From: a phage
Length of the DNA stretch: 64,000 nt
Sequence record: PX880101.1
Strand: one strand, 5' to 3'
The notes beneath the pieces are model-generated. The model had not been told where the DNA came from. It ran no database searches and saw only the letters and a list, made by a program, of their open reading frames with translations. Below, in pieces: positions 2,578-57,979 of this stretch. The number at the start of each line of letters is the position of its first letter. Position 1 is the first letter of the stretch. A program made the position numbers and the translations under genes.

Positions 2578-3003
2578 ATGATCTATGAAATGCCAAAACT
2601 GATTCGCGACGATGCCCAAAACGCCCACACCTTTATCATGGGCAAGCGCATGGATATTATTTGTCATAAAGACTTCTGGGAAGGGAGTTACTTCACAGAG
2701 TATTTTGGTAAACTGGACAATGGTCTGCTGATCCAGTTCTACACCGATGCGGAAAACAACATTCACTGGGAGTTCGAAACTGAAGATATCCATAAACTTT
2801 TCACCTTCCTCGGTATTAAGGTTGAGGCCAAGTTTGAAGAAGGTGAGTGCGACGATTGTGGATTCTATGAGGTAACAGATTTCTACCTTCCAAGTGGTAA
2901 AAATCTCTACTACGAAAGCCACTTCGGCAACTCAAATATGCCACAGTGTTGGGATGAGTTTTTGGAAATTGCAGAAGAGGAGCTGGAATACCGTGATTAT
3001 TGA
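2578..3003 (+). CDS. hypothetical acidic protein
   Basis: ORF; no motif recognised. Confidence 0.5.
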   Translation: MIYEMPKLIRDDAQNAHTFIMGKRMDIICHKDFWEGSYFTEYFGKLDNGLLIQFYTDAENNIHWEFETEDIHKLFTFLGIKVEAKFEEGECDDCGFYEVTDFYLPSGKNLYYESHFGNSNMPQCWDEFLEIAEEELEYRDY

Positions 3004-3451
3004 TACTGTAGAGGGAGATCTAATCTCCCTTTTCAAGAAAGGGGCAGGACACATGATCCACGGTTGCAACTGCTTTCACACAATGGGTGCAGGCATAGCG
3101 AAAGATATTGCCCGTGAGTTCCCTCAAGCATTGGCAGCAGACAAAGAGACTGCTTATGGTAATCTAGACAAGCTGGGTATGTTTTCTTGTTGGGAGCATT
3201 TTGCCAAGAACAAGGTTGTATATGGAATCAACCTATATACTCAGTTCTACCCAGGACCTAATGCTGAATACTTCTCAATCATGAAAGGCTTTGAGCGAGT
3301 CAACGAGGTATTCAAAGGTATGTCATTACCGTTCTACATTCCTAAAATCGGATGCGGTATTGGTGGTCTAAAGTGGGAACACGTGGAAGACGTCATTAAT
3401 CTTGCCACCACCGACATCGATGTGATCGTGGTGGAGTACAAAAAGTGTTGA
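2993..3451 (+). CDS. macro domain (ADP-ribose binding / processing) protein; proposed GTG start overlapping upstream stop
   Basis: N-terminal GDL...HGCNCFHTMGAGIAKDI resembles the macro-domain signature (GDIT...NAAN...GGGV..AI) from memory; GIGGL near C-terminus. Confidence 0.5.
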   Translation: MIIDTVEGDLISLFKKGAGHMIHGCNCFHTMGAGIAKDIAREFPQALAADKETAYGNLDKLGMFSCWEHFAKNKVVYGINLYTQFYPGPNAEYFSIMKGFERVNEVFKGMSLPFYIPKIGCGIGGLKWEHVEDVINLATTDIDVIVVEYKKC

Positions 3452-5289: not shown

Positions 5290-5790
5290 CTGGCATATCA
5301 AGTGTAAGGGGGATTTCTAAAATGGATTTCCTCCTTTTGATATTTCACCGGGCTGGATATTTTAAAATTCTTAGAAAATCAGAAAATGGATCGAAAACTA
5401 AAATGGATTTTTCAGAGTAGGCGCGACAAGCTGAATAACTCATCCTATCGTTTGCACCATATTCCAGGCCACCATTATAGATTTCCCACACATGCTAACC
5501 TCCCTCTACTAGAACTTCCTCCACTTGCCCTTAACCTTCTATGGTAACAATCTAACCACTATCTTGAAGTTGCGGTGCAGCTTTCCAAGTACTCGATCTA
5601 CTTTTCATTTCATGGCTTGGATTTTCTGAAAATTTTTCTCGATAAATTTCTCAGTACTCGATCTGTTTTTCGTTTTCTGAATCGGATTTTCTGGAAATCG
5701 TTCCGGATCTCGACCTGAAATTTTTGGGGACGAAATCGATTTTTCGTTTTCAGAAATGGATTTTTAAAATTTCTATATGGGAATATTTTA
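5290..5790. repeat. AT-rich iteron-like region (repeated aaaatggattt, ggattttctg, agtactcgatct, tttcgttttc units)
   Basis: Several short motifs each occur 2-4 times in direct orientation in an ORF-free stretch. Confidence 0.6.
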
Positions 5791-6817: not shown

Positions 6818-7216
6818 ATGAAAACTACAACCTTTAATTTTGACAATGCCGACTTCTCTTTTTCTGATGTTAAGAATTGCCGCCGTGATCGTGGATTTTA
6901 CAAGGCTTATAATCTGGTTGGCCTAGACGATGATAATAATTTGCACGAAGTAGCGGAGATCCGGTACTATGCCGCCGCCAGCGGTAACACTAACTACTGC
7001 GTTTTTTGGATACACGACAACAAGAATAATAAGTACGGTTATACTGGTGGCAAGGCGAGCGGTCACGGTTATGATAAGGCCAATGCAGCACTTGAGAGCG
7101 CGTTAAATGCTATGGGGATCACTGCCAACGGCTGGATCTATGAAGATGAGTTTTTGTCAGCACTTGCTGCCCACCTGGGGTATAAAAAGCACATTGTGAC
7201 ATGCGCCCACGAATAA
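6818..7216 (+). CDS. hypothetical protein
   Basis: ORF with TTGACA-N17-TATACT promoter and aagagga RBS upstream. Confidence 0.55.
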   Translation: MKTTTFNFDNADFSFSDVKNCRRDRGFYKAYNLVGLDDDNNLHEVAEIRYYAAASGNTNYCVFWIHDNKNNKYGYTGGKASGHGYDKANAALESALNAMGITANGWIYEDEFLSALAAHLGYKKHIVTCAHE

Positions 7217-7226
7217 AAAAAAATTA

Positions 7227-7254
7227 TTGACACGCTGCAAAATTAAAGTAAACT
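7227..7254 (+). promoter_or_regulatory. sigma70-like promoter (TTGACA-N16-TAAACT)
   Basis: Hexamers read directly; followed by leader hairpin and RBS of ORF 7304. Confidence 0.55.
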
Positions 7255-7264
7255 AGACACAAAA

Positions 7265-7283
7265 GGCGGGAATGTTTCCCGCC
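7265..7283 (+). promoter_or_regulatory. 5' leader hairpin GGCGGGAA-tgt-TTCCCGCC (member of a recurring leader-hairpin family)
   Basis: Perfect 8 bp inverted repeat between promoter -10 and RBS. Confidence 0.5.
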
Positions 7284-7303
7284 AACACAAAGGAAAAAAG
7301 ATC

Positions 7304-7699
7304 ATGAATAAGAACGTACGCCGCATCATGAACGAACTGGCAAACGATGAAAAAATTATTGATATGCATTTGGTAAACATTTGCCGCCGTTGTGTAACAT
7401 ATAACAACCGCGCCGCAAAAGCGCGTGAGATGAACGCAAAAGGCACCTTAAAGCCCTTTCAGGTGGTTGTAAAATCTATAACCAGTGCAGCAGACCAGGC
7501 GCATGACCACAACAACGGGAGCACTAATATTGATCCGTCTTACGTAATGAAACGGATCCGGACTTGCAAGAATAAAGAGCAGGTGTATAACGTCATAGAT
7601 TGGTTGGACTCCCTGGGCGATGTGGTTTATAATAGGTTTTCTGCAGCTATCGAGATCCAGCTTGACAGACTGGACGGGAAAGTACTGAAAACTTACTAA
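7304..7699 (+). CDS. hypothetical protein
   Basis: ORF with promoter, leader hairpin and RBS. Confidence 0.55.
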   Translation: MNKNVRRIMNELANDEKIIDMHLVNICRRCVTYNNRAAKAREMNAKGTLKPFQVVVKSITSAADQAHDHNNGSTNIDPSYVMKRIRTCKNKEQVYNVIDWLDSLGDVVYNRFSAAIEIQLDRLDGKVLKTY

Positions 7700-7710
7700 G
7701 TTTATTTTTA

Positions 7711-7734
7711 GATGGCCTTGACGCCAGGGCCATC
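7711..7734 (+). promoter_or_regulatory. 24 bp palindrome GATGGCCTTGACGCCAGGGCCATC overlapping a -35 TTGAC (operator-like), copy 1
   Basis: 10 bp arms (9/10 match) around a 4 bp centre; near-identical 45 bp element repeated at 8330 and 12068. Confidence 0.5.
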
Positions 7735-7778
7735 AATAAAGTAAACTAATCCCAGTTAAGCTAAAAGGAGGCTTGAAG

Positions 7779-7898
7779 ATGAGCACTACACGCCAGCACA
7801 CAAAGGTAACTATTATCGTTTGCATCATTGGTTATATCCTGGCGCAAATGTTGATGGGTAGCGCCAACGGTGTCGCAAAATTTTTCTTAAACTTTTAA
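7779..7898 (+). CDS. small hydrophobic protein (39 aa)
   Basis: Strong aaaaggagg RBS; hand translation MSTTRQHTKVTIIVCIIGYILAQML... Confidence 0.35.
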   Translation: MSTTRQHTKVTIIVCIIGYILAQMLMGSANGVAKFFLNF

Positions 7899-7926
7899 TT
7901 GACAAGCTAACTTAGATCGGTATACT
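7899..7926 (+). promoter_or_regulatory. sigma70-like promoter (TTGACA-N16-TATACT)
   Basis: Consensus hexamers; followed by hairpin gggaa-aac-ttccc and RBS. Confidence 0.6.
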
Positions 7927-7976
7927 AAACACATCAACGGGAAAACTTCCCAGAACACACAAAAGGAGAAAACACC

Positions 7977-8318
7977 ATGACCACTATGACCGCCGCAGAA
8001 AAAGCTATTCAGATCGCTGCCCTGAAAAAACAGATCGCAGACCTTGAGAATAAGATCGATAACTTTGAAATCGACGAGGACAAGTACGACGAAAACTATG
8101 ATGAATGGTTAGACGAGATCTACGGCGAAATTATGATCGGAAACATTTCTTTTCTTCCGTCGCGTATCCTCAAGGAGCTAGATCCTATCGCTTACCGCTG
8201 CGGATTTAGCGACTACATCGACAGCCTGGATATTGAGGACGATGAAGAATACCAGGAATTACAGACAGAGTTGGAAGAAGCAAAAGAAGAGCTTGCGGAG
8301 CTGGAAGAAAACGAGTAA
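7977..8318 (+). CDS. hypothetical acidic coiled-coil protein
   Basis: ORF with aaaaggag RBS; Glu/Asp-rich. Confidence 0.55.
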   Translation: MTTMTAAEKAIQIAALKKQIADLENKIDNFEIDEDKYDENYDEWLDEIYGEIMIGNISFLPSRILKELDPIAYRCGFSDYIDSLDIEDDEEYQELQTELEEAKEELAELEENE

Positions 8319-8329
8319 GATTATTTTTA

Positions 8330-8353
8330 GATGGCCTTGACTCCAGGGCCATC
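8330..8353 (+). promoter_or_regulatory. 24 bp palindrome GATGGCCTTGACTCCAGGGCCATC, copy 2
   Basis: Same element as 7711, including the flanking ttatttttag...aataaagtaaact. Confidence 0.5.
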
Positions 8354-8407
8354 AATAAAGTAAACTTTATACTGTTAACACTGAACTAATGCATAGGAGT
8401 TAAAACC

Positions 8408-8653
8408 ATGGCAGCACTAATCACTAAATATTACGCCCCTACCAACACCAAAAGCGCCCGTATCATGGTAAAAGGCTTCGGACGTAAAAAGGTTTACACC
8501 TGGGATTATGCCTTAGACACGGAAGACAACTACACCAACGCGATGACAGATTTTATTAATGAGCTGAACACGCGGATCTTGACAAATTATAAAATTACCG
8601 ATATTGCCTATATAGGGGAAGGCGGGATCTGTTTTGTCGGTATCGTCAAATAA
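8408..8653 (+). CDS. hypothetical protein
   Basis: ORF with taggag RBS. Confidence 0.5.
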   Translation: MAALITKYYAPTNTKSARIMVKGFGRKKVYTWDYALDTEDNYTNAMTDFINELNTRILTNYKITDIAYIGEGGICFVGIVK

Positions 8654-8666
8654 ACTGTTTTTTCGG

Positions 8667-8688
8667 TGGTCCTGGTAGCAGGGCCATC
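8667..8688 (+). promoter_or_regulatory. divergent palindrome TGGTCCTGgtagCAGGGCCA, related to the GATGGCC element
   Basis: 8 bp inverted repeat, same position relative to the downstream gene. Confidence 0.4.
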
Positions 8689-8729
8689 TATAAAGATAGT
8701 TTATCAATACAATGAAAGGAGAAAGTAAC

Positions 8730-9083
8730 ATGATCAGTGGGGCAAGTTTTATTATTGGCGCTATTGCTACGGCTTTAATTGTAAACAAGATCCAATCTAA
8801 AAACGAAAAAGAGAGCAACGCGCTCACAGAATACCCATTTTGGATATTCAACGACAATGAAGACTACATTATCAAGTACAAGAATGAGAAGGGCGACCAG
8901 GTAACACCGCGACCGATCCCGGCCTACAAGATGCAAGAAACACTATACCGCCTAAAGGCTGGAGGCGCAAAAATCGTAGACTTTTGGGGATATGATTGCA
9001 AGGATCAGGAGGTTATAAAACGGCGTATCCGGGCTATTCAGGCCAATATTGAAGTTAGCAAGGGGGGAATATATGAAGATTAA
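8730..9083 (+). CDS. putative membrane protein
   Basis: ATG after aaaggag RBS; N-terminal hydrophobic segment ISGASFIIGAIATALIV; the earlier ORF-track ATG lies inside the RBS. Confidence 0.5.
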   Translation: MISGASFIIGAIATALIVNKIQSKNEKESNALTEYPFWIFNDNEDYIIKYKNEKGDQVTPRPIPAYKMQETLYRLKAGGAKIVDFWGYDCKDQEVIKRRIRAIQANIEVSKGGIYED

Positions 9084-9270
9084 TTTTGAGAAGATTGTAA
9101 AGCGATCTCATGATTCCGAAGAGCTGCCGGAACGCCGCCAGCGTAACAATAAACTGAATAAGCCAAAAAGATTTGGGAAGATCTGGCGGAATCATTATGA
9201 TCGTAAATTGCCGGGCCTCCTTTTGGAACGTGAACGGCAGGCGGAACGATACCGCCACAAAGGCAACTAA
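9073..9270 (+). CDS. small basic protein
   Basis: Internal ATG with aagggggg RBS; Arg/Lys-rich. Confidence 0.4.
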   Translation: MKINFEKIVKRSHDSEELPERRQRNNKLNKPKRFGKIWRNHYDRKLPGLLLERERQAERYRHKGN

Positions 9271-9277
9271 CAACCAA

Positions 9278-9307
9278 CGCCCCGCCATCGTGCGGGGCTT
9301 TTTATTT
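9278..9307 (+). terminator. intrinsic terminator
   Basis: Hairpin gccccgc-catcg-tgcgggg followed by ctttttatttc. Confidence 0.6.
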
Positions 9308-9510
9308 CTACCCTACGAATAGCGCCCCTGGTTGGCCCTGTAAGCGCCAAAAAGGCCCCACCTATGCAATCGCCCCCTTTAACCTGAAAACATCGCTTAG
9401 GGCCGTTTTATGGCGTTAAAAATATCATTGACAGTGATTTTATTTAAAGCTTGACATCTTAAACAGGTTAGCTATACTAACCACATCAAAGAGAGAAAGG
9501 AGTAAACGCC

Positions 9511-9771
9511 ATGCGTAAATTAAAAAATTTTGATAAAGTTGATGTTGTCCTGAATAATTTTTACTACTGCAACAACAAGGCCATTTGGTGGCGTGATAGT
9601 TCCACCGATAAAGTCAAGGCGCGCTTTCTCCAGGGGCACTGGCAAGGCCGCCCAGTGATTAAAATCATGGGGCAATTGGTAGCGTTTAAAAATTGCCGCC
9701 GTGTTGATGACGTTGAGGAGATTTTAAACATTTTGCGCCACAATAATTTAAAAAATAGTGTTGACAAGTAA
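9511..9771 (+). CDS. hypothetical protein
   Basis: ORF with TTGACA-N16-TATACT promoter and aaaggag RBS. Confidence 0.5.
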   Translation: MRKLKNFDKVDVVLNNFYYCNNKAIWWRDSSTDKVKARFLQGHWQGRPVIKIMGQLVAFKNCRRVDDVEEILNILRHNNLKNSVDK

Positions 9772-9788
9772 ATCTCAATAAGTATAAT
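9761..9788 (+). promoter_or_regulatory. sigma70-like promoter (TTGACA-N16-TATAAT)
   Basis: Consensus hexamers; followed by hairpin ggcgg-gaaaactta-ccgcc (9799-9817). Confidence 0.6.
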
Positions 9789-9845
9789 TAAACACACAGG
9801 CGGGAAAACTTACCGCCACTAACAAAGAAAACAGGAGAAAATATC

Positions 9846-10469
9846 ATGACCACCGTTAACATTACCACAGGTTACAATTTATCTTTCGACGTGCTGACCG
9901 ACGAACAAAAAGAAAAAGCCATTGAAATGGTACGCGAAAGAGAAGAACACAGCGGGGATGACTTTTTTGCAGAAAGTGTAATTGAACACTACAAAGAATA
10001 TATCTTTCCAGAGTACGGCCTTGAAGATACCGAAGTACATTGGTCCGGCTTTTGGTGCCAGGGTGACGGCGCGTCAATCAGTGCTGAAAACGTGGATTTA
10101 GAAAAATTTTTGCGTAAAGTAAAGGCCCTGACCAAGTTCCGATCAATTCGTCACTTGTTCGGCACAATGCACGATGGCGAGTTATCAGCCAGTGTTGAAC
10201 GCGACAAGTACAGCCATTACAGCCATGAAAACACTGTAAGCGGATACATTGATACCACCTGGCTAGATCTGACCGCCAAACAAGAAAACAAAGTGGAAGA
10301 CCTGGAAGAGCTGATCACCGAGACGGTACGGGAGCTATCCCGCAAGGTTTACGTAGACCTGGAGGAGGCCTATCTAGAACAGTTCACTACCGAAAACCTG
10401 ATCGGCCTTATTGAGGCCAATGATTGGCGGTTTGATGTGGATGAATATGGAGAGATGAGTTTTTCATAA
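9846..10469 (+). CDS. hypothetical protein
   Basis: ORF with promoter, leader hairpin and RBS. Confidence 0.55.
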   Translation: MTTVNITTGYNLSFDVLTDEQKEKAIEMVREREEHSGDDFFAESVIEHYKEYIFPEYGLEDTEVHWSGFWCQGDGASISAENVDLEKFLRKVKALTKFRSIRHLFGTMHDGELSASVERDKYSHYSHENTVSGYIDTTWLDLTAKQENKVEDLEELITETVRELSRKVYVDLEEAYLEQFTTENLIGLIEANDWRFDVDEYGEMSFS

Positions 10470-10560
10470 ATAAAGTGTTGCAATAATCTAAAAACCTGCT
10501 ATATTAAAACTCAAGGGGGGGCAAGACGTTTGCCCCACACAAAACAAAGAGGAAAACATT

Positions 10561-10941
10561 ATGAAAAACACTACTAAAGCTATTGACACCGTTATGTTTA
10601 ACCTGGTTACCTTTCGCGAGGATATGAAAGATCTTCCACGTGAAACAGTGTGCGATCACATTGAAAACTATCGCAAACTAATCAAAGAGTTGCCTTTAAA
10701 ACGTGACCAGTATGCGGCTAACGCTATGCTCAACGCCATGATCAAAAAGATGATTCAGTGTGATTTAACCCTGGCCTATGATTATGCAGGTGGTCGTTTT
10801 GCAGTATACAATCAGCCCGTGCCTGGTATGAGCACCACCGAAGAATTGCACGCGTTAAATCTGAAACAAGATGTATGGGATAACATGCCCCGCGTGGTGG
10901 TGTGGGCAGAAAGCGGAAAGATTTACGGCGATAATTTTTAA
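10561..10941 (+). CDS. hypothetical protein
   Basis: ORF with promoter, hairpin gggggcaagacgtttgcccc and aagagga RBS. Confidence 0.55.
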   Translation: MKNTTKAIDTVMFNLVTFREDMKDLPRETVCDHIENYRKLIKELPLKRDQYAANAMLNAMIKKMIQCDLTLAYDYAGGRFAVYNQPVPGMSTTEELHALNLKQDVWDNMPRVVVWAESGKIYGDNF

Positions 10942-10951
10942 TCAGGTAACA

Positions 10952-10978
10952 GGCGGCATATTTGCCGCCTTATTGTTA
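10952..10978 (+). terminator. intrinsic terminator
   Basis: Hairpin ggcggca-tat-ttgccgcc followed by ttattgtt. Confidence 0.5.
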
Positions 10979-11005
10979 AACAGAACTGCAAAAGAGGTAC
11001 ATAGA

Positions 11006-11377
11006 ATGGAATTTATTATTTTGGCTGTAGTAGTTGCCTTGTTCAACGCCTGGATCGCTGGCAAGATAGGTAGATCCGCTTTTCTATGGTTTGTTATATC
11101 TATTTTCCTGGGAGTGGTTGCAACTATTGTATTGGTTATCCTTGCAATTGTTGACAAGGGCGATAATAGAAAGGGTAAAGTGTTTTCCGACCTGTATGAC
11201 GCACAAACGTTTGTCAACGCCTATTATAGTGATCTTCCAGTCTCCCTACGCTGCAGCCTGGCACAACAGGTTTTTGATGAGGCTAAAACCAGAGACCAAG
11301 CCCATGAGATATGTTTAACTGAAGCGGATCGCCTATTTGAGAGGAATAGAAAATATGTGGACCAGCCGTTTAAATAA
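11006..11377 (+). CDS. membrane protein with two predicted TM helices
   Basis: ATG after aaagagg RBS; MEFIILAVVVALFNAWIAG and FLWFVISIFLGVVATIVLVILAIV. Confidence 0.5.
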   Translation: MEFIILAVVVALFNAWIAGKIGRSAFLWFVISIFLGVVATIVLVILAIVDKGDNRKGKVFSDLYDAQTFVNAYYSDLPVSLRCSLAQQVFDEAKTRDQAHEICLTEADRLFERNRKYVDQPFK

Positions 11378-11596
11378 CGCCACGTTAATTAATCCCTTTA
11401 GTGAAGATTTGAAGCCAGCCGCCTGGCGTGACGGATTCAATAACGAACGCTTTATTTTCAGGCCTGATCTTGAGGAATTTTATAACAATGGATCGAACAA
11501 CAGCGGAGATAATTTTTCTTGTGGTGTGCGTGGTGATAGGACTCCTGGGGGCCATTGTAAACCACGTCACTACTAACAGGAGGGAAGGGGGAGACG

Positions 11597-11716
11597 ATGA
11601 CAACCAAGGATAAGCCATGCGCTGATAAGGTGCGCCGTGTTATGGTATGGCTTGAGATTATCGCCCTTGAAATATTGTTAGGCGTAGGGATGTACTTTAT
11701 CGCTGTAAGTAACTAA
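11597..11716 (+). CDS. small membrane protein (39 aa)
   Basis: Strong aggagggaaggggg RBS; hydrophobic C-terminal half; terminator follows. Confidence 0.3.
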   Translation: MTTKDKPCADKVRRVMVWLEIIALEILLGVGMYFIAVSN

Positions 11717-11720
11717 GAGC

Positions 11721-11750
11721 GGCCCCCGATCATGGGGGCCTATCTTTTAA
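11721..11750 (+). terminator. intrinsic terminator
   Basis: Hairpin ggccccc-gatcat-gggggcc followed by tatcttttaaaaaattttt. Confidence 0.6.
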
Positions 11751-11854
11751 AAAATTTTTCTTCCGGGGTGTTGCAATCCGGTCCGGAATGTGGATAATAA
11801 CAATCAACGGGGAGCTAATCCCCACCACCACAAAAACCAGAAAGGAGAAACAAA

Positions 11855-12055
11855 ATGAGCAACAATATCCGCGTTATTAACTTCAAAAAAGAAGAAAAAA
11901 TTGCCGTGCTGATTGACGGTCAAGAAATCTTCAAGGGCGACTATGAAGATCATCAAACGGCGATTAGTATCACTCGCGTGATTGGTTATCATAATTTCTA
12001 CCCCCAAGGCGCTGAGGCAGCAGTTAAACGAATCAAAGAGATTGTAGGCCTGTAA
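11855..12055 (+). CDS. hypothetical small protein
   Basis: ORF with promoter, hairpin cggggagctaatccccacc and aaaggag RBS. Confidence 0.5.
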   Translation: MSNNIRVINFKKEEKIAVLIDGQEIFKGDYEDHQTAISITRVIGYHNFYPQGAEAAVKRIKEIVGL

Positions 12056-12067
12056 AATTTATTTTTA

Positions 12068-12091
12068 GATGGCCTTGACTTCAGGGCCATC
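12068..12091 (+). promoter_or_regulatory. 24 bp palindrome GATGGCCTTGACTTCAGGGCCATC, copy 3
   Basis: Third copy of the 45 bp element. Confidence 0.5.
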
Positions 12092-12148
12092 GATAAAGTA
12101 AATTTAAACCCTGTTAAAATACCACGCAGTTAACAAGGAGTGATAGAC

Positions 12149-12448
12149 ATGTTTATCCAGGCTAATAATCTTTATTTCTTTGATGGTCAGATCGTAGATG
12201 GTGTGGAAGTGGAGATCACCGGGTGCCCTGGCGGTCAGGCTATGACTTTTCGGAATAATGCCTTTGATGATTCTCATATCGTTATGAGAATGGAAGTTAC
12301 GAAGCTGGACGACAAGAAAACACTTATTGACTATTCTGTGAAAGATCATCCAGACTACCGCATGATCCATGGTGATTTGTGCATTGTTGACCGTGACAAG
12401 GTGGGCGGCATTGTGATCGCTATTGTGAACGATGTTTTCTCAAACTAA
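12149..12448 (+). CDS. hypothetical protein
   Basis: ATG 8 nt after aaggag RBS. Confidence 0.5.
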   Translation: MFIQANNLYFFDGQIVDGVEVEITGCPGGQAMTFRNNAFDDSHIVMRMEVTKLDDKKTLIDYSVKDHPDYRMIHGDLCIVDRDKVGGIVIAIVNDVFSN

Positions 12449-12840
12449 TTTCAGCAGGCGATTTTATGAAAGTCAAACTATATTACCTTAATGAGCTTAA
12501 CCCCCTTGCCCAGGTCCGCGCCCTAGCTAATACCTTGATTTGTGAGAAATCTGTATATTGTGTTGAGCTTAACACGTCTCAAAGGTGGTTACTTTGACAT
12601 CCATGCTGCAATCAACGGCCTGAATATGGAATTTATACGCTTACGTAACAGCCGCCGGAATCTGGCAAGAATGGAACAAGATCCGGCCCACCTTCGCAAG
12701 CTGGTTATTGAAAATCATCTGATGTTTAATGCCGAGGGGGATTATTACCATTTTCACCGCAAACGCTGGTACCGTGGCGGCAATACAGGCAAGAATGCAA
12801 AATAAGGCCCCTAGCAGGGCCTGCAGCAATATAATCACAT

Positions 12841-12875
12841 AAAGGCCATGCGGTTGCATGGCCTTTATTATTTTG
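12841..12875 (+). terminator. intrinsic terminator
   Basis: Hairpin aaaggccatgc-ggtt-gcatggccttt followed by attatttt. Confidence 0.6.
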
Positions 12876-13007
12876 GCGTTACAACGGCATACGGGGCGCT
12901 TAAAAAATTTTTAAAGAAGTACTTGCATCATTCCCGACAATATGGATAATAAGAGTTGTCGAGGGGGAGGCCCCCAATCGTTGACCAGATAGATAGGAGT
13001 TAAAATC

Positions 13008-13292
13008 ATGGCTATTGTTACCGCTGGCGATGTAGTAGAAATGGAAGCAAAATACTTAAAAGCGGGTATGCACATCCTACGGAATGATCAAGAGTTATTA
13101 TTAACGATGGTTGACTATAATCACGGCCAGGATTATCCAAGCATCGACTACTTTTTTGAGTATGTTGATGAAGAGTTGAAAGAGGATGAGGCCTATTGCG
13201 GTGAGTTCTGCAACTTCTTTTGTCCTGATGAGGTTGTAAAGGTTATTTATCAACCTGGCGTAGCTTTCCCGCTGCACGCTATCAATAAATAA
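13008..13292 (+). CDS. hypothetical acidic protein
   Basis: ORF with TTGCAT...GATAAT promoter, hairpin gggggaggccccc and taggag RBS. Confidence 0.5.
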   Translation: MAIVTAGDVVEMEAKYLKAGMHILRNDQELLLTMVDYNHGQDYPSIDYFFEYVDEELKEDEAYCGEFCNFFCPDEVVKVIYQPGVAFPLHAINK

Positions 13293-13347
13293 ACCTGGCG
13301 GGGCCGAAAAGGCCCCCAATTATGAAAATAAAGAGAGGCAAATCATC

Positions 13348-13581
13348 ATGATGGAACAAATTAAACGCGCCGAGGCTATTAATGGCAACGTGATCTATTT
13401 TGTCAGCAAAAACGAAAAAGGCGTACCATATGCGGCAGTAATAGTACAACCTGACGGCGATTATTGGTTTACTGTGTACGGCGCTTATTCTTTTGGGCGT
13501 CCAGTGCATGATAAAATTTTGAAAGTAGCGAACCCTACCGGGAAGAATATCACAGCAGAAAAATTTTTTGAAAATAGTTGA
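13348..13581 (+). CDS. hypothetical protein
   Basis: ORF with aaagagagg RBS. Confidence 0.5.
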   Translation: MMEQIKRAEAINGNVIYFVSKNEKGVPYAAVIVQPDGDYWFTVYGAYSFGRPVHDKILKVANPTGKNITAEKFFENS

Positions 13582-13605
13582 CATGACCATATAAGACTGT
13601 AATAT
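13578..13605 (+). promoter_or_regulatory. sigma70-like promoter (TTGACA-N16-TAATAT)
   Basis: Hexamers; followed by hairpin ggggcaacgaacccc and aagagga RBS. Confidence 0.55.
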
Positions 13606-13656
13606 ATAAATCAAAGGGGGCAACGAACCCCACCAACTACAAAGAGGATAAAAATC

Positions 13657-13836
13657 ATGGCTATTATTGCAAAGACTGAGATCGTAGGCTTAGATTCTAT
13701 TCTCCTCGCATATGAGGAAGCTATAGAAATGTATGTGGTTTCCTATGGTGAGTATATCCGTGAATATAAATCTATTGATCTGGCTTTTGAATGTTATATC
13801 CGCCAGGTTAATAAAGCGTACGATGATTATCGTTAA
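13657..13836 (+). CDS. hypothetical small protein (59 aa)
   Basis: ATG after aaagaggataaaaatc; hand translation MAIIAKTEIVGLDSILLAYEEAIEMYVVS... Confidence 0.4.
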   Translation: MAIIAKTEIVGLDSILLAYEEAIEMYVVSYGEYIREYKSIDLAFECYIRQVNKAYDDYR

Positions 13837-13923
13837 AATAGTTTGACAACAGCCATCTTACAAAGCATAATACATAAGGCGGTGGAATGGTCCGCCACCT
13901 GGAACAAAGAAGAGGTAAACACC

Positions 13924-14169
13924 ATGAAAAGCAATAAAGGTTATAACGGTTACAAAAACAAAACTCATTGGAATGTAAGCCTTTGGATTAATAACGATGA
14001 GTCATTGTACCGGTTGGCCCAAGGCTTTATTAACGCCAATGCTAATCGTAATGATGCGGCGCGGGATATGATGCTTTTTCTGGAGCTAACCGGACAAGAT
14101 AAGACCCCGGACGGCTTCAAGTACAGCACTACGGCGATCCGTGCCGCGATGGTTGGAATGAAACACTAA
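13924..14169 (+). CDS. hypothetical protein
   Basis: ATG after aagaagagg RBS, downstream of leader hairpin ggcgg-tggaatggt-ccgcc; the upstream ORF-track start would run through the hairpin. Confidence 0.5.
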   Translation: MKSNKGYNGYKNKTHWNVSLWINNDESLYRLAQGFINANANRNDAARDMMLFLELTGQDKTPDGFKYSTTAIRAAMVGMKH

Positions 14170-14360
14170 AAGCACATAGCTGCCTTACCCTGGGGCTGTG
14201 GTAGCGGCCCCATGAATAAGGTTACTAACAGAAGAGAATAAACACCGTGAAACAGAAATTAATCGATGCAGTGATCTTGGTTATTGCCCTGGGTATTGGC
14301 CTGATTGCAACCATGTCTAATATGATCTTGTCTTCCAACGGTATCTGGTGAGGTTGGCAA

Positions 14361-14576
14361 ATGATCACTAACAAAACAGGCAAAACGGAATTTTTACGCA
14401 ACTTACAGATCGGCAAGCCTGAGATCTGGTACTGCACTAAAACACCGCGTGACGAAATGAAAGACTTCACCGCCACGCTGCAACGGGTAAAGATATCTAT
14501 CACGCAGAAAAAGGCCTTACTAGTGGTGGAAGGGGAGATCCCCCAAACCGTTGTTATAGTTGAGCGTACAGCATAG
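14361..14576 (+). CDS. hypothetical small protein
   Basis: ORF. Confidence 0.4.
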   Translation: MITNKTGKTEFLRNLQIGKPEIWYCTKTPRDEMKDFTATLQRVKISITQKKALLVVEGEIPQTVVIVERTA

Positions 14577-14667
14577 TTTAATTTATACAGATACCTGAAA
14601 ATTAACCAACAAAGCATAAACAGGCGGTTACCGCCGCCTTAAACGTAGCAGAAAGAGGATAGACACA

Positions 14668-14952
14668 ATGAAAAAGATGATCGCAGTGGTTACCCTGGTT
14701 GTTGGACTTAATGCGCCTGTAATGGCTAAAGAGCTGGCAAAAGAGGTTAATCTAACGGATATTCATGCCGTCAATCAAATCGGGGTTACTTATCGCTTAT
14801 GCCTTGCCGCTAAAACTTTTAAGGACGGCACAACAGAGTACTACGGATTCGAGGGTATCCGGTGCGGTGAGCTTGCTCGCGACCTTAAGGAAGATCCAGA
14901 CCTGGAGGAACTGCCCATAACCGTGAACGGGAAAACTTACGTGAACCGTTAA
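14668..14952 (+). CDS. putative secreted or periplasmic small protein
   Basis: Signal-peptide-like MKKMIAVVTLVVGLNAPVMA; aagagga RBS; leader hairpin ggcgg-tta-ccgcc upstream. Confidence 0.5.
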   Translation: MKKMIAVVTLVVGLNAPVMAKELAKEVNLTDIHAVNQIGVTYRLCLAAKTFKDGTTEYYGFEGIRCGELARDLKEDPDLEELPITVNGKTYVNR

Positions 14953-14954
14953 CC

Positions 14955-15089
14955 ATGAGAAAGATAATTATTACCATGGGGATCGTGGCGGCAATGTTGG
15001 CGATCTTTCCCTTTATGGTTAGGTATGTGCTGATTAATGTTGTCCTGGTAGTCAGCGATCTGGTGTTATATATTAACTCATTGTTTTAG
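14955..15089 (+). CDS. small membrane protein (44 aa)
   Basis: ATG overlapping upstream stop; hydrophobic throughout. Confidence 0.3.
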   Translation: MRKIIITMGIVAAMLAIFPFMVRYVLINVVLVVSDLVLYINSLF

Positions 15090-15097
15090 GCGCGATA

Positions 15098-15289
15098 ATG
15101 ACAGCGGAAGAAGTTAAAAAAGTACTGGCGGTACTGCGTTATCATAATCATTGCAAGGTGAAGAATGATCCTGATTATCTTGATTCATCCCTTGAAGAGG
15201 ATACACTACAAGCCATAAGCAACATGCAAGAATTGCTTAAGCGTATGACAGAGAAAAACCGACCGGACTACATAGGGGGTAAAATATGA
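15098..15289 (+). CDS. hypothetical small protein
   Basis: ORF. Confidence 0.4.
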   Translation: MTAEEVKKVLAVLRYHNHCKVKNDPDYLDSSLEEDTLQAISNMQELLKRMTEKNRPDYIGGKI

Positions 15290-15597
15290 TCGCTATTACG
15301 CCAACCGTTTTAGATTGGTATCGGCAACGCATAGCGCCTCCGCTGGCTATCTTCAAAGATGCGGAAGCAAAACAACGCCGGATCTCAATACATGAGATCA
15401 TCAACCTTAACGCTGGAGGCACACCATACCGCCCAGGACCTGGCCGTGAGATGGACAATACATTGGCGATCCTGAAGATACGCCGTAAACGGTCCTCCCT
15501 TACGCTGGATTCATTACACACAATGCAGTCTCCGTTCCAGGTGACTGGGAAACGGATCGCCAGGTCCTGGACAAAGGCCAATGACCGGACCGTATAA
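15286..15597 (+). CDS. hypothetical protein
   Basis: ORF overlapping upstream stop by 4 nt. Confidence 0.4.
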   Translation: MIAITPTVLDWYRQRIAPPLAIFKDAEAKQRRISIHEIINLNAGGTPYRPGPGREMDNTLAILKIRRKRSSLTLDSLHTMQSPFQVTGKRIARSWTKANDRTV

Positions 15598-15651
15598 ATA
15601 AAAAGTGTTTTGGTACTGATTTTGGGGTTGACTTGTTCGGCCCCTTTTGCT

Positions 15652-15707
15652 ATTCTTATTAAACGGGCGGCACTTGGGAACAGGGGGAGACAATCACCAG
15701 GCCTGCC
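15652..15707 (-). repeat. inverted copy of the GGCAGGCC-GGTGATTGTCTCCC element seen at 5913-5958
   Basis: Reverse complement caggcaggcctggtgattgtctccccctgttccc closely matches gggcaggcccggtgattgtctcccggcccctgttgccc. Confidence 0.55.
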
Positions 15708-57822: not shown

Positions 57823-57896
57823 ACCAGTAAAAACTTAAATATCTGTACTATAAGGATTCGTATGTTTTATGTTCGCTCTAGAATAGAGGTCAGTAA

Positions 57897-57979
57897 CTGT
57901 CCGTGATACGGACACTACTGTCCGTCACGCGGACACATCTGCCCGTAATACGGACACTAACTGTCCGTGATACGGACAC
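57897..57979. repeat. four tandem ~19 bp units each containing inverted repeat GTCCGT-N-ACGGAC, ~21 bp period
   Basis: ctgtccgtgatacggacac at 57897, 57918 (variant), 57938 (variant), 57961. Confidence 0.7.

Follow-up and report, generated by a model that had tools for sequence, protein, structure and literature searches.

We believe that the repeated element reported here is best read as an RNA hairpin that appears to resemble the RNase III sites of T7, and that may also act as a linker of the PeSL (promoter-early stem-loop) type; the alternative of an operator is unsupported. Most likely, the element marks sites of early-message cutting or stabilisation and of cassette loss, and not an operator bound by a protein. 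Stated in full, the proposal is an intercistronic cassette of early operons in which RNA structure is the selected feature and which combines an RNase III-type site with a recombination linker; we give it about an even chance of being correct.

Results

Copies and position

The window (64,000 nucleotides of record PX880101.1) belongs to an rV5-like coliphage, genus Vequintavirus. A repeat search in it recovers a 51-nt family at 7697-7747, 8316-8366 (96%) and 12054-12104 (88%), with a variant at 8651-8701 (67%). The original prediction of three near-identical copies and one related variant is thus borne out, and its starts (7702, 8321, 12059 and 8667) are correct within a few bases; the conserved unit is longer than the 45 bp it assumed. 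Exact matches to GATGGCCTTGACNNCAGGGCCATC are found at 7711-7734, 8330-8353 and 12068-12091, all on the + strand, where dinucleotide shuffles give a chance expectation of 0.00.

The search of the whole genome (~135 kb), proposed with the prediction as a check, yields these four copies only. The element is present in ~121 related phage genomes and absent from everything else searched: there is no host-side match in 5,426 E. coli genomes and 185,579 species genomes, and it was found in no other replicon. No Rfam family corresponds to it; the best overlap is with the rhtB sRNA (23.1 bits against a gathering score of 55, E = 1.7).

The four copies are confined to one early block of 4.4 kb. On the coding strand a stop codon lies 0-2 nt from the start of every copy, and the next start codon follows ~30-45 nt downstream of each, with a Shine-Dalgarno (SD) sequence in between. 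Promoters matching the consensus at 10-11 of 12 positions lie upstream of the copies; both P194 and P192 are included in Table S4 of the rV5 promoters (PMC3606486). Those at 7227-7254 and 7899-7926 should ensure transcription through copies 1, 2 and the variant, and the terminator at 9279..9298 presumably ends the operon. Most intercistronic junctions of the same operons have no such hairpin. The neighbouring genes are all ORFans with no function assigned by annotation, and their homologues occur in unrelated phages. The rV5-like lineage also has ORFans in common with T4-type phages. The original rV5 genome paper and all inspected annotations list no promoter or terminator at the element sites.

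Table 1. Features of the early block (window coordinates; energies are for the RNA fold)
Feature	Position	Strand	Details
Upstream sigma-70 promoter	7227..7254	+	10/12; equivalent to rV5 P194
Hairpin copy 1	7699..7747	+	MFE -25.3 kcal/mol, z -5.98; its first base is the final stop-codon base of the 131-aa ORF; lower stem 7699-7708/7738-7747; upper stem 7711-7720/7725-7734; internal loop 7709-7710 and 7735-7737; loop 7721-7724; covariance model match 7694-7754, 79.3 bits
Sigma-70-like hexamers, copy 1	7718..7747	+	TTGACG 7718-7723, 18-nt spacer, TAAACT 7742-7747; 9/12; equivalents at 8337-8366 (copy 2) and 12075-12104 (copy 3)
Repeat period	7748..8366	+	619 bp; 39-aa ORF 7779-7898, promoter, 113-aa ORF 7977-8318, copy 2
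Strong promoter within the period	7899-7926	+	11/12; rV5 P192
Hairpin copy 2	8318..8366	+	-23.5 kcal/mol, z -5.16; right after the stop codon of the 113-aa ORF; covariance model match 8313-8373, 80.1 bits
Diverged (variant) copy	8650..8704	+	-28.2 kcal/mol, z -7.2; downstream of the 81-aa ORF; two-tier, 13-bp lower stem, upper stem GGUGGUCCUG/CAGGGCCAUC, loop GUAG, without TTGAC; compensatory pairs relative to the main copies; covariance model match 8648-8708, 73.6 bits
First canonical intrinsic terminator past copies 1, 2 and the variant	9279..9298	+	GC stem plus TTTTTATTT; terminator scan
Hairpin copy 3	12055..12105	+	-24.7 kcal/mol, z -4.96; downstream of the 66-aa ORF; lower-stem pair 7-53 is A-U in place of G-C; covariance model match 12051-12111, 78.6 bits

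RNA structure and covariation

The “24 bp palindrome” does exist; however, it is imperfect (one T·G per main copy, two in the variant, at positions that pair on the + strand only), and it is only the top of a larger two-part structure. In all four copies the + strand transcript can fold, from the stop codon of the preceding ORFan onwards, into a hairpin of two tiers. A tetraloop caps the GC-rich upper stem of 10 bp; below it come a 2/3-nt internal loop and an A/U lower stem of 10-13 bp, which is built by the T-run following the stop codon together with the previously proposed “-10”. The two stems form a near-continuous helix of ~20-23 bp. The arms do not flank TTGAC, as had been supposed: its TTG ends the left arm at the top, and its AC supplies the first two of the four loop nucleotides.

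The + strand folds reach -23.5 to -28.2 kcal/mol (z about -5 to -7.2), with the same MFE and centroid fold in each of the four copies and an equally stable structure in 0 of 200 shuffles. The - strand RNA is weaker, at -13 to -19 kcal/mol, because of the G·U wobbles, and the DNA fold of the element gives only -10 to -12 kcal/mol. Accordingly, from the “bidirectional stem-loop” we retain the stem-loop but not its bidirectionality, also considering that a U-tract follows the stem on neither strand.

A transcription terminator, intrinsic or bidirectional, is the explanation that we find the least probable of all. It agrees with a stable GC-rich stem placed right after stop codons, and a PeSL stem-loop did reduce lacZ read-through in a reporter (PMC2839356); but the tails are AAUAAAG (+ strand) and UAAAAAU (- strand), and the terminator scan, which calls six canonical U-tract terminators across the same 12-kb stretch, skips the element and finds none before 9279. 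The - strand fold is weak, and there are no - strand genes nearby.

An independent RNAalifold analysis of 36 distinct copies, drawn from 17 phage genomes or contigs, recovers the same 10+10 bp structure, with four compensatory pairs in the lower stem. When this structure is imposed on the alignment, 92.6% of the cells pair, against 36-54% with slid partners. Covariation scores 0.187; slid partners give no more than 0.065, and 0 of 500 shuffles attain the observed value. This covariation represents few independent events among closely related sequences. Changes in the upper stem are all one-sided and preserve pairing through wobbles (A-U to G·U, C-G to U·G, U·G to C-G, G-C to G·U); in diverged copies, indels fall only in the loop or internal loop and both helices stay intact. 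In some copies the outer pairs of the lower stem contain uncompensated mismatches (A·C in four cases, A·A in five, C·A in three). The unpaired bases (the UA/AAU internal loop and the A-C of the loop) are as well conserved as the stems.

These data bear directly on the operator, i.e., a dimeric phage or host protein that would cover the -35 box by binding to the 24-bp dyad of the DNA duplex. A dyad of 10+10 bp overlapping TTGAC and high sequence conservation, unpaired bases included, are what one would expect of it. However, the imperfections are all T·G or G·T on the + strand (C·A if read on the - strand), so that the symmetry is strand-specific, and the variant alters one arm only, at three positions, which leaves a DNA symmetry of 7/10 but an RNA pairing of 10/10. 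Conservation also reaches a second helix with compensatory changes, which an operator would not predict; the variant keeps the hairpin without TTGAC; the centre spacing is not fixed (a loop of 4 or 5 nt); 10 bp would be an unusually long half-site; and no regulator emerged as a candidate. We consider an operator highly improbable.

Discussion

Likeness to RNase III sites

We presume that the hairpin is a processing and 3'-end-stabilising site of the RNase III type, comparable to the R sites between the cistrons of T7 early mRNA. Host RNA polymerase starting from the promoters at 7227 and 7899 would read through the element; cleavage in the internal loop would part the cistrons, and the message on the upstream side would keep a protective hairpin at its end. 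RNase III action on the element is what we infer here purely from analysis.

Substrates of RNase III need about two helical turns (~22 bp), and internal loops confine the cleavage to one strand, which results in a protective 3' hairpin (PMC1540722; PMC6212723). The element has 10 bp plus 10-13 bp across the 2/3-nt internal loop, which is long enough for a T7-type site if coaxial stacking is allowed. The published distal box places U-A and then U·G directly under the pair that closes the loop, and the cut lies 11 positions away. The three main copies agree with it exactly (G-C closing pair, U-A, U·G, internal loop at position 11), while the variant has C-G at the stringent U·G position; in each of the four copies, counting from the loop, the internal loop starts at position 11, which is a comparison of structure. 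For the proximal box the optimum is G-C, A-U/U-A, A-U, A-U/U-A, without G-C at position 2. The agreement here is partial: position 2 is A-U, which is acceptable, and the inhibitory G-C is absent there, but U-A replaces the optimal G-C at position 1, and G-C the optimal A-U at position 3.

With the T7 early sites (R0.3, R0.5, R1, R1.1, R1.3) the element has in common that the hairpin is intercistronic and follows closely on a stop codon, that a tetraloop-capped upper stem of ~10 bp is separated from a lower stem by an asymmetric internal loop (about two helical turns in total), that U-A and U·G lie directly under the loop-closing pair (in the three main copies), and that promoters occupy the same intergenic spaces; R1.1 folded from NC_001604 gives a 10-bp upper stem and tetraloop over an internal loop. 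The differences are as follows. Sequence homology is lacking, the covariance model giving no match in the early region of T7; T7 has the larger internal loop (about 4/5 nt, compared with 2/3 nt here); and the proximal box agrees only in part.

The REP/BIME-type and other intercistronic stabiliser hairpins of E. coli are repeated, strand-specific and GC-rich, lack a U-tract, and can shield upstream mRNA from 3' exonucleases. The element is likewise a repeated, strand-specific, GC-rich intergenic hairpin without a U-tract; however, it has no match in the host genomes searched and has an additional A/U helix.

A phage-encoded RNA-binding protein (a translational repressor, an antiterminator or a decay factor) could also read the hairpin together with the bases of its loops. 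The equal conservation of unpaired bases and stems is consistent with this, as are four copies in one early block, which could form a small regulon. Yet the variant differs from the main copies in both the internal loop (UC/UAU) and the loop and is still maintained, and no RNA-binding protein is recognisable among the neighbouring ORFans. We regard such a site as unlikely.

Likeness to PeSL cassettes and the role of the promoter

PeSL cassettes are described in T4-type phages RB49/phi1, PST and nt-1 (Arbiol et al. 2010, PMC2839356; Comeau et al. 2014, PMC4122927). All four copies share with them the layout of a repeated composite intergenic motif that runs from the upstream stop codon through an AT-rich stretch and precedes the SD and ATG. 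Also similar are sigma-70-like hexamers with a G-T-containing stem-loop able to overlap the -35 box (in the element, the upper stem holds the TTG of TTGAC and one T·G pair, and the lower stem holds TAAACT), and the position between ORFans of a plastic early region in which relatives differ by cassette indels with a junction inside the motif. The lineages differ, however (Vequintavirus here, Straboviridae for PeSLs), and there are four copies against about 50.

It is tempting to propose that the element is mainly an internal sigma-70 early promoter (a UP-like T/A run, TTGAC, TAAACT) serving the downstream ORFan, with a stem-loop that merely attenuates upstream read-through, as was proposed for the PeSLs of RB49/phi1. 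TTGAC is kept in 25 of the 27 distinct main copies; its last two bases, A28 and C29 of the loop, are kept in 26-27 of 27, whereas the two adjoining loop bases vary freely. The accepted promoter 7227-7254 shares the -10 context AAAGTAAACTA, the distance of ~30-45 nt to the SD and ATG is suitable, and the described PeSL subclasses include stem-loops overlapping the -35 box (PMC2839356). The retention of A28 and C29, which the RNA model leaves unexplained, points to a real -35 box or to another sequence-specific reader.

A sigma-70-like TTGAC-N18-TAAACT does overlap the stem-loop, as the original prediction had it for the -35 box; but this site is weak (9/12 with an 18-nt spacer), is missing from the variant, which has no -35 box, and falls in a class that is mostly expected by chance here (42 sites against 25 in shuffles). 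It is not the strong promoter of a PeSL: the real PeSLs of Krischvirus have a near-consensus TTGACA-N17-TAnnAT and a short G/C stem of 6-8 bp inside the promoter, an anatomy other than a two-tier helix of ~50 nt. The promoter lists of the rV5 authors (PMC3606486) omit the element. In two natural copies, both with intact helices, the -35 and -10 lie farther apart (Phage 203 copy 1, 19 nt; Ga0129313 copy 1, 20 nt), and a promoter does not predict the compensatory changes in the lower helix. We treat a promoter-centred cassette as a possible but doubtful alternative. Under the RNA-processing proposal, the embedded hexamers may add a weak internal sigma-70 promoter that is not the conserved core.

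Cassette loss

At least three relatives and one metagenomic viral contig (phiWec189, ime, ECP26 and UViG L025) lack exactly one 619-bp period containing two ORFans. This is based on blastn of the window against phiWec189 and ime, a single-piece match in ECP26, and a chimeric element in UViG L025. The carriers of the deletion retain a single chimeric element with the left flank of copy 1 and the right flank of copy 2, so the junction is inside the element. The most divergent relative (84% identity) carries the cassette; therefore, loss by repeat recombination is the parsimonious direction. As the copies are near-identical direct repeats, they have acted as homologous-recombination linkers deleting an ORFan cassette, which is shown for this one event. 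Polymorphisms common to paralogous copies (e.g., G at the internal loop, TAAGATT/TAAATTT variants) suggest gene conversion between them.

Integron attC sites are strand-specific imperfect hairpins at the 3' end of each gene cassette, and cassettes are lost at them. The PeSL authors likewise draw this analogy (PMC2839356). The element likewise occupies the 3' end of ORFan cassettes and forms an imperfect, strand-specific hairpin interrupted by an internal loop; the junction of a cassette-sized indel falls within it, and the homologues of neighbouring ORFans in unrelated phages would suit exchange. One could thus propose a dedicated recombination site or small mobile element whose recombinase reads the hairpin in the attC manner, which we consider highly improbable, as we do the operator; only slightly less improbable is an attC-like cassette-exchange site at the 3' end of each early ORFan cassette, read by a putative phage function with mini-circles as intermediates. 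Plain homologous recombination across direct repeats of ~50-60 bp explains the indel, and only one type of rearrangement is seen among ~121 genomes. No integrase or recombinase partner was identified; the element fits a ssDNA substrate poorly, its fold being far stronger as RNA; it was found in no other replicon; and no evidence was found of its insertion into new contexts.

Significance

The rV5-like phages are widely used candidates for therapy and biocontrol, and their early gene regulation is uncharted. The analysis defines a conserved RNA structure with covariation support at sites lacking an annotated promoter or terminator. The prediction of RNase III-dependent ends in the internal loops would offer a first handle on the processing of early polycistronic messages in the genus. 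Regulatory cassettes as recombination linkers have so far been reported for T4-type phages only, an idea that the present analysis extends to an unrelated myovirus lineage. Should a cassette-exchange site prove true, it would mean an integron-like gain and loss of anti-host genes in rV5-like phages. The element is a natural deletion hotspot, which bears on the engineering and genome stability of therapeutic stocks.

Results

The 24-nt core of the element occurs three times exactly on the + strand of the window (0.00 expected), and the repeat search returned a single 51-nt family, the fourth member of which is the diverged variant (Table); the repeated element of the original prediction is therefore real. 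The whole-genome motif search proposed with it was run on Escherichia phage A6-1 (exact pattern, 3 mismatches, covariance model at E up to 10) and gave no copy beyond these four. A6-1 is the best (99.7%) of the 124 phage records matched by a 6-kb query around the element, and is followed by rV5, FFH2, FV3 and the BASEL phages, all of the genus Vequintavirus.

Structural parts of the element in + strand RNA, and coordinates of the element copies and of other features in the window
Feature	Coordinates	Size or form	Remark
Copy 1	7697-7747		exact core at 7711
Copy 2	8316-8366		exact core at 8330
Copy 3	12054-12104		exact core at 12068
Variant	8651-8701		67% identical
Lower stem		10-13 bp	T-rich run from the stop codon pairs with AAAGTAAACT, the putative "-10"
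Internal loop		2 nt on 5' side, 3 nt on 3' side	MFE/centroid fold
Upper stem		10 bp, GC-rich	capped by tetraloop
Last two loop bases (alignment columns 30-31)	7723-7724, 8342-8343, 12080-12081		
5'-UTR hairpins	7264-7283, 7926-7963, 9789-9826	GGGAAAACTTCCC or GGCGGGAA..TTCCCGCC	preceded by TAAACACA
Motif just 3' of copy 3	12112-12121	TGTTAAAATA	
Tandem direct repeats	5579-5764	three, ~65-74 nt	74-76% identity
Inverted-repeat units	57888-57979	three closely spaced copies, CTGTCCGTGATACGGACAC type	family D3

A 54-nt query matched 350 places in 121 phage records. These records are all Vequintavirus, and almost every genome shows three matches, a count that leaves out the variant, which is too diverged to register. 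Neither 185,579 species genomes of bacteria and archaea nor 5,426 E. coli genomes gave a match. The metagenome and IMG/VR matches are rV5-like contigs only (an earlier, looser IMG/VR pattern gave mostly chance matches in unrelated contigs and was set aside), and the single "plasmid" match is an rV5-like genome. The covariance model gave no match in the T7 early region, in a PeSL-rich region of a Krischvirus, or in a Mydovirus region (one ~17 kb stretch only, a weak negative); a homologous element in other genera is therefore not demonstrated. Scanning 7000-13000 against Rfam with a permissive E-value cutoff returned nothing credible and no family matching the element.

Two labels in the databases deserve a comment. 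PLSDB entry CP057073.1 (137,565 bp), filed as a non-mobilisable E. coli plasmid, has three copies of the element and an rV5-like size, and is probably a phage genome, present as a pseudolysogen or as a contaminant. Seventeen GenBank MG0656xx records (e.g., MG065658 and MG065682) bear the name "Campylobacter phage" with C. jejuni as host and share 96-100% identity with this E. coli rV5-like region; the host assignment is probably an error or the result of contamination.

The element lies inside the long leftward early unit of rV5 (the + strand of the window), among a series of small ORFs of unknown function. The 33 promoters and 20 terminators listed in the rV5 genome paper do not include it (PMC3606486 Table S4), the RefSeq record has no regulatory feature at its site, and no Vequintavirus transcriptome came up in a literature search. 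As to other repeats in the window, the tandem array at 5579-5764 is upstream of the early ORFan block, has no convincing ORF, and could be iterons or another regulatory array.

As + strand RNA, all four copies adopt an identical MFE and centroid fold, of which the palindrome is only the upper part, with energies of -23.5 to -28.2 kcal/mol (z from -5 to -7.2). On the complementary strand the wobble positions turn into C·A, so that the energies there are no lower than -13 to -19 kcal/mol; DNA parameters yield a weak fold (-10 to -12 kcal/mol). The suggested stem-loop is thus present, but it is strand-specific and not "bidirectional"; the bidirectional reading was rejected on the weak opposite-strand fold and the missing U-tract. 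A terminator was rejected as well, since the stem has no trailing U-tract on either strand; the terminator scan, which called six canonical terminators over the same 12 kb, did not call the element. When 1-17.5 kb was scanned by sliding-window MFE for other hairpins devoid of a U-tract, the output was too noisy for use.

The palindrome had been considered an operator at which a dimeric DNA-binding protein occludes a promoter. Such an operator predicts strand-independent dyad symmetry, fixed spacing and no second helix. All three fail (the symmetry is strand-specific, the spacing varies and a second helix is present), and the operator reading is not supported.

Selection on the structure was assessed with 57 copies, 36 of them distinct and ungapped, taken from the window, from 11 GenBank phages and from metagenomic or viral contigs. 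Unguided RNAalifold recovered the same 10+10 bp structure, with two-sided changes at four pairs: 7-53 (G-C/A-U/G-U), 8-52 (U-A/C-G), 10-50 (U-A/G-U/A-U/G-C) and 11-49 (A-U/U-A). Imposing the structure leaves 92.6% of cells paired, versus 36-54% with slid partners; the covariation score is 0.187 versus at most 0.065 and is reached by 0 of 500 shuffles, the sequences being closely related and the independent events few. All upper-stem differences between the three main copies and the variant are one-sided and wobble-preserving, and the two outermost lower-stem pairs have uncompensated mismatches in some copies. In Ga0129313, the most divergent genome (84% identity), copy 1 has 5 nt in its loop and 4 nt on the 3' side of the internal loop; substitutions of A for G and of U for C convert U·G to U-A and G-C to G·U, and the fold is retained (-22.6 kcal/mol).

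The last two loop bases show at least five dinucleotide states (GC, TC, TT, AC, CC) and are far more variable than the rest of the element, among genomes otherwise ~95% identical. Either a mutational hotspot at the tip of the hairpin or gene-conversion shuffling may be responsible.

The string TTGACN-N18-TAAACT scores 9/12 against sigma-70, a score class that is mostly background here (42 sites versus 25 in shuffles); the evident early promoters of the region score 10-12/12 with spacers of 16-17 nt. It might still be a weak functional promoter, which we consider possible though somewhat improbable. The loop bases A28 and C29 are nearly invariant while the next two have up to four states, and the accepted promoter 7227-7254 shares the -10 context AAAGTAAACTA; however, TTGAC is missing from the variant, and the spacer is 19 nt in Phage 203 and 20 nt in Ga0129313 with the helices intact. 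An additional promoter is also unnecessary in this stretch, with the promoters 7227 and 7899 placed ahead of copies 1, 2 and the variant and with no U-tract terminator before 9279. Functional or otherwise, this promoter does not make up the element's core. A promoter formed by the hairpin in ssDNA was rejected, as its -35 and -10 would not be in order on one helix.

Other signals were noted nearby. The motif behind copy 3 exactly matches the "late promoter" motif of rV5 P030 (PMC3606486 Table S4C), and a conserved C(A/T)GTTAA is found at the equivalent offset for copies 1 and 2. The repeated 5'-UTR hairpins directly follow strong sigma-70 promoters and are a second conserved leader-structure family in the same region.

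Discussion

The fold resembles the sites at which RNase III cuts T7 early mRNA (R sites). E. coli RNase III substrates span about two helical turns, and internal loops confine the cut to one strand, so that the upstream RNA keeps a protective hairpin at its 3' end (PMC1540722; PMC6212723). The T7 early R sites, folded from NC_001604, have the same form: R1.1 is AAGGUCAUUC-GCAA-GAGUGGCCUU above an internal loop, in an intergenic space that also holds promoters. Pertzev and Nicholson describe an 11-position helix from tetraloop to cut, with a distal box (U-A, then U·G under the closing pair) and a proximal box where G-C at position 2 blocks binding. In the main copies the closing G-C followed by U-A and U·G matches the distal box exactly; C-G, C-G, G-C and G-C come below it; in the proximal box U-A at position 1 and G-C at position 3 are non-optimal while A-U at position 2 is permitted; and the internal loop is at position 11 from the loop, as in the 11-position rule. 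The conserved "mismatch" of the palindrome would then be explained, since this U·G would be part of the distal box. The variant is devoid of the U·G, so the match is suggestive, not decisive. By analogy, we infer that the element would work like a T7 RNase III site.

The arms of T7 R1 (CAGGUCAUC / GGUGGCCUG; T7 3094-3179) resemble those of the variant (GGUGGUCCUG / CAGGGCCAUC; window 8665-8688) with the 5' and 3' arms swapped, so that one and the same duplex carries its loop at opposite ends in the two. The resemblance may be due to chance or to convergence on a helix that suits RNase III.

The copies also serve recombination. The phages phiWec189 and ime align to the window through 7747 and restart at 8307 or 8318, the overlap being inside a single element; they are without exactly one 619-bp period (a 39-aa ORF, a strong promoter and a 113-aa ORF), and ECP26 and an IMG/VR viral contig (L025) have the same arrangement. 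The element that remains is a chimera in which the left flank comes from copy 1 and the right flank from copy 2. Because the most divergent genome keeps copies 1 and 2 and the cassette between them, the parsimonious reading is loss of the cassette through recombination between the repeats. A chimeric junction with cassette loss is the signature described for the promoter-early stem-loop (PeSL) cassettes of RB49/phi1 (PMC2839356; PMC4122927), and the element acts like a PeSL recombination linker, with one event shown. The actual PeSLs of a Krischvirus are unlike it in anatomy: in them a near-consensus promoter encloses a short G/C stem. Polymorphisms shared by paralogous copies point to gene conversion. 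In addition to the RNase III-like and linker roles, the element possibly includes a weak internal promoter.

The laboratory variant rV5_ev146 (LR699804) has deletions of 7297-7790 and 9219-15691, ending at 13-19-nt microhomologies outside the element, so that copies 1 and 3 are lost, along with ~7 kb of early ORFans. The region is therefore dispensable under laboratory conditions, and the element is not the sole deletion route.

We conclude that the element is an RNA hairpin cassette that lies between cistrons, is specific to the genus and had not been annotated before. Several of the early genes of rV5 carry an RB49-like annotation, the macro-domain (Tk.4) gene (~2990-3451) is 65% identical to its counterpart in Krischvirus (the RB49-like, PeSL-bearing group), and the 81-aa ORFan 8408-8653, between copy 2 and the variant, has homologues (43-47% aa) in the Seuratvirus siphophages CAjan and slur01; the early block therefore trades genes with other coliphages.
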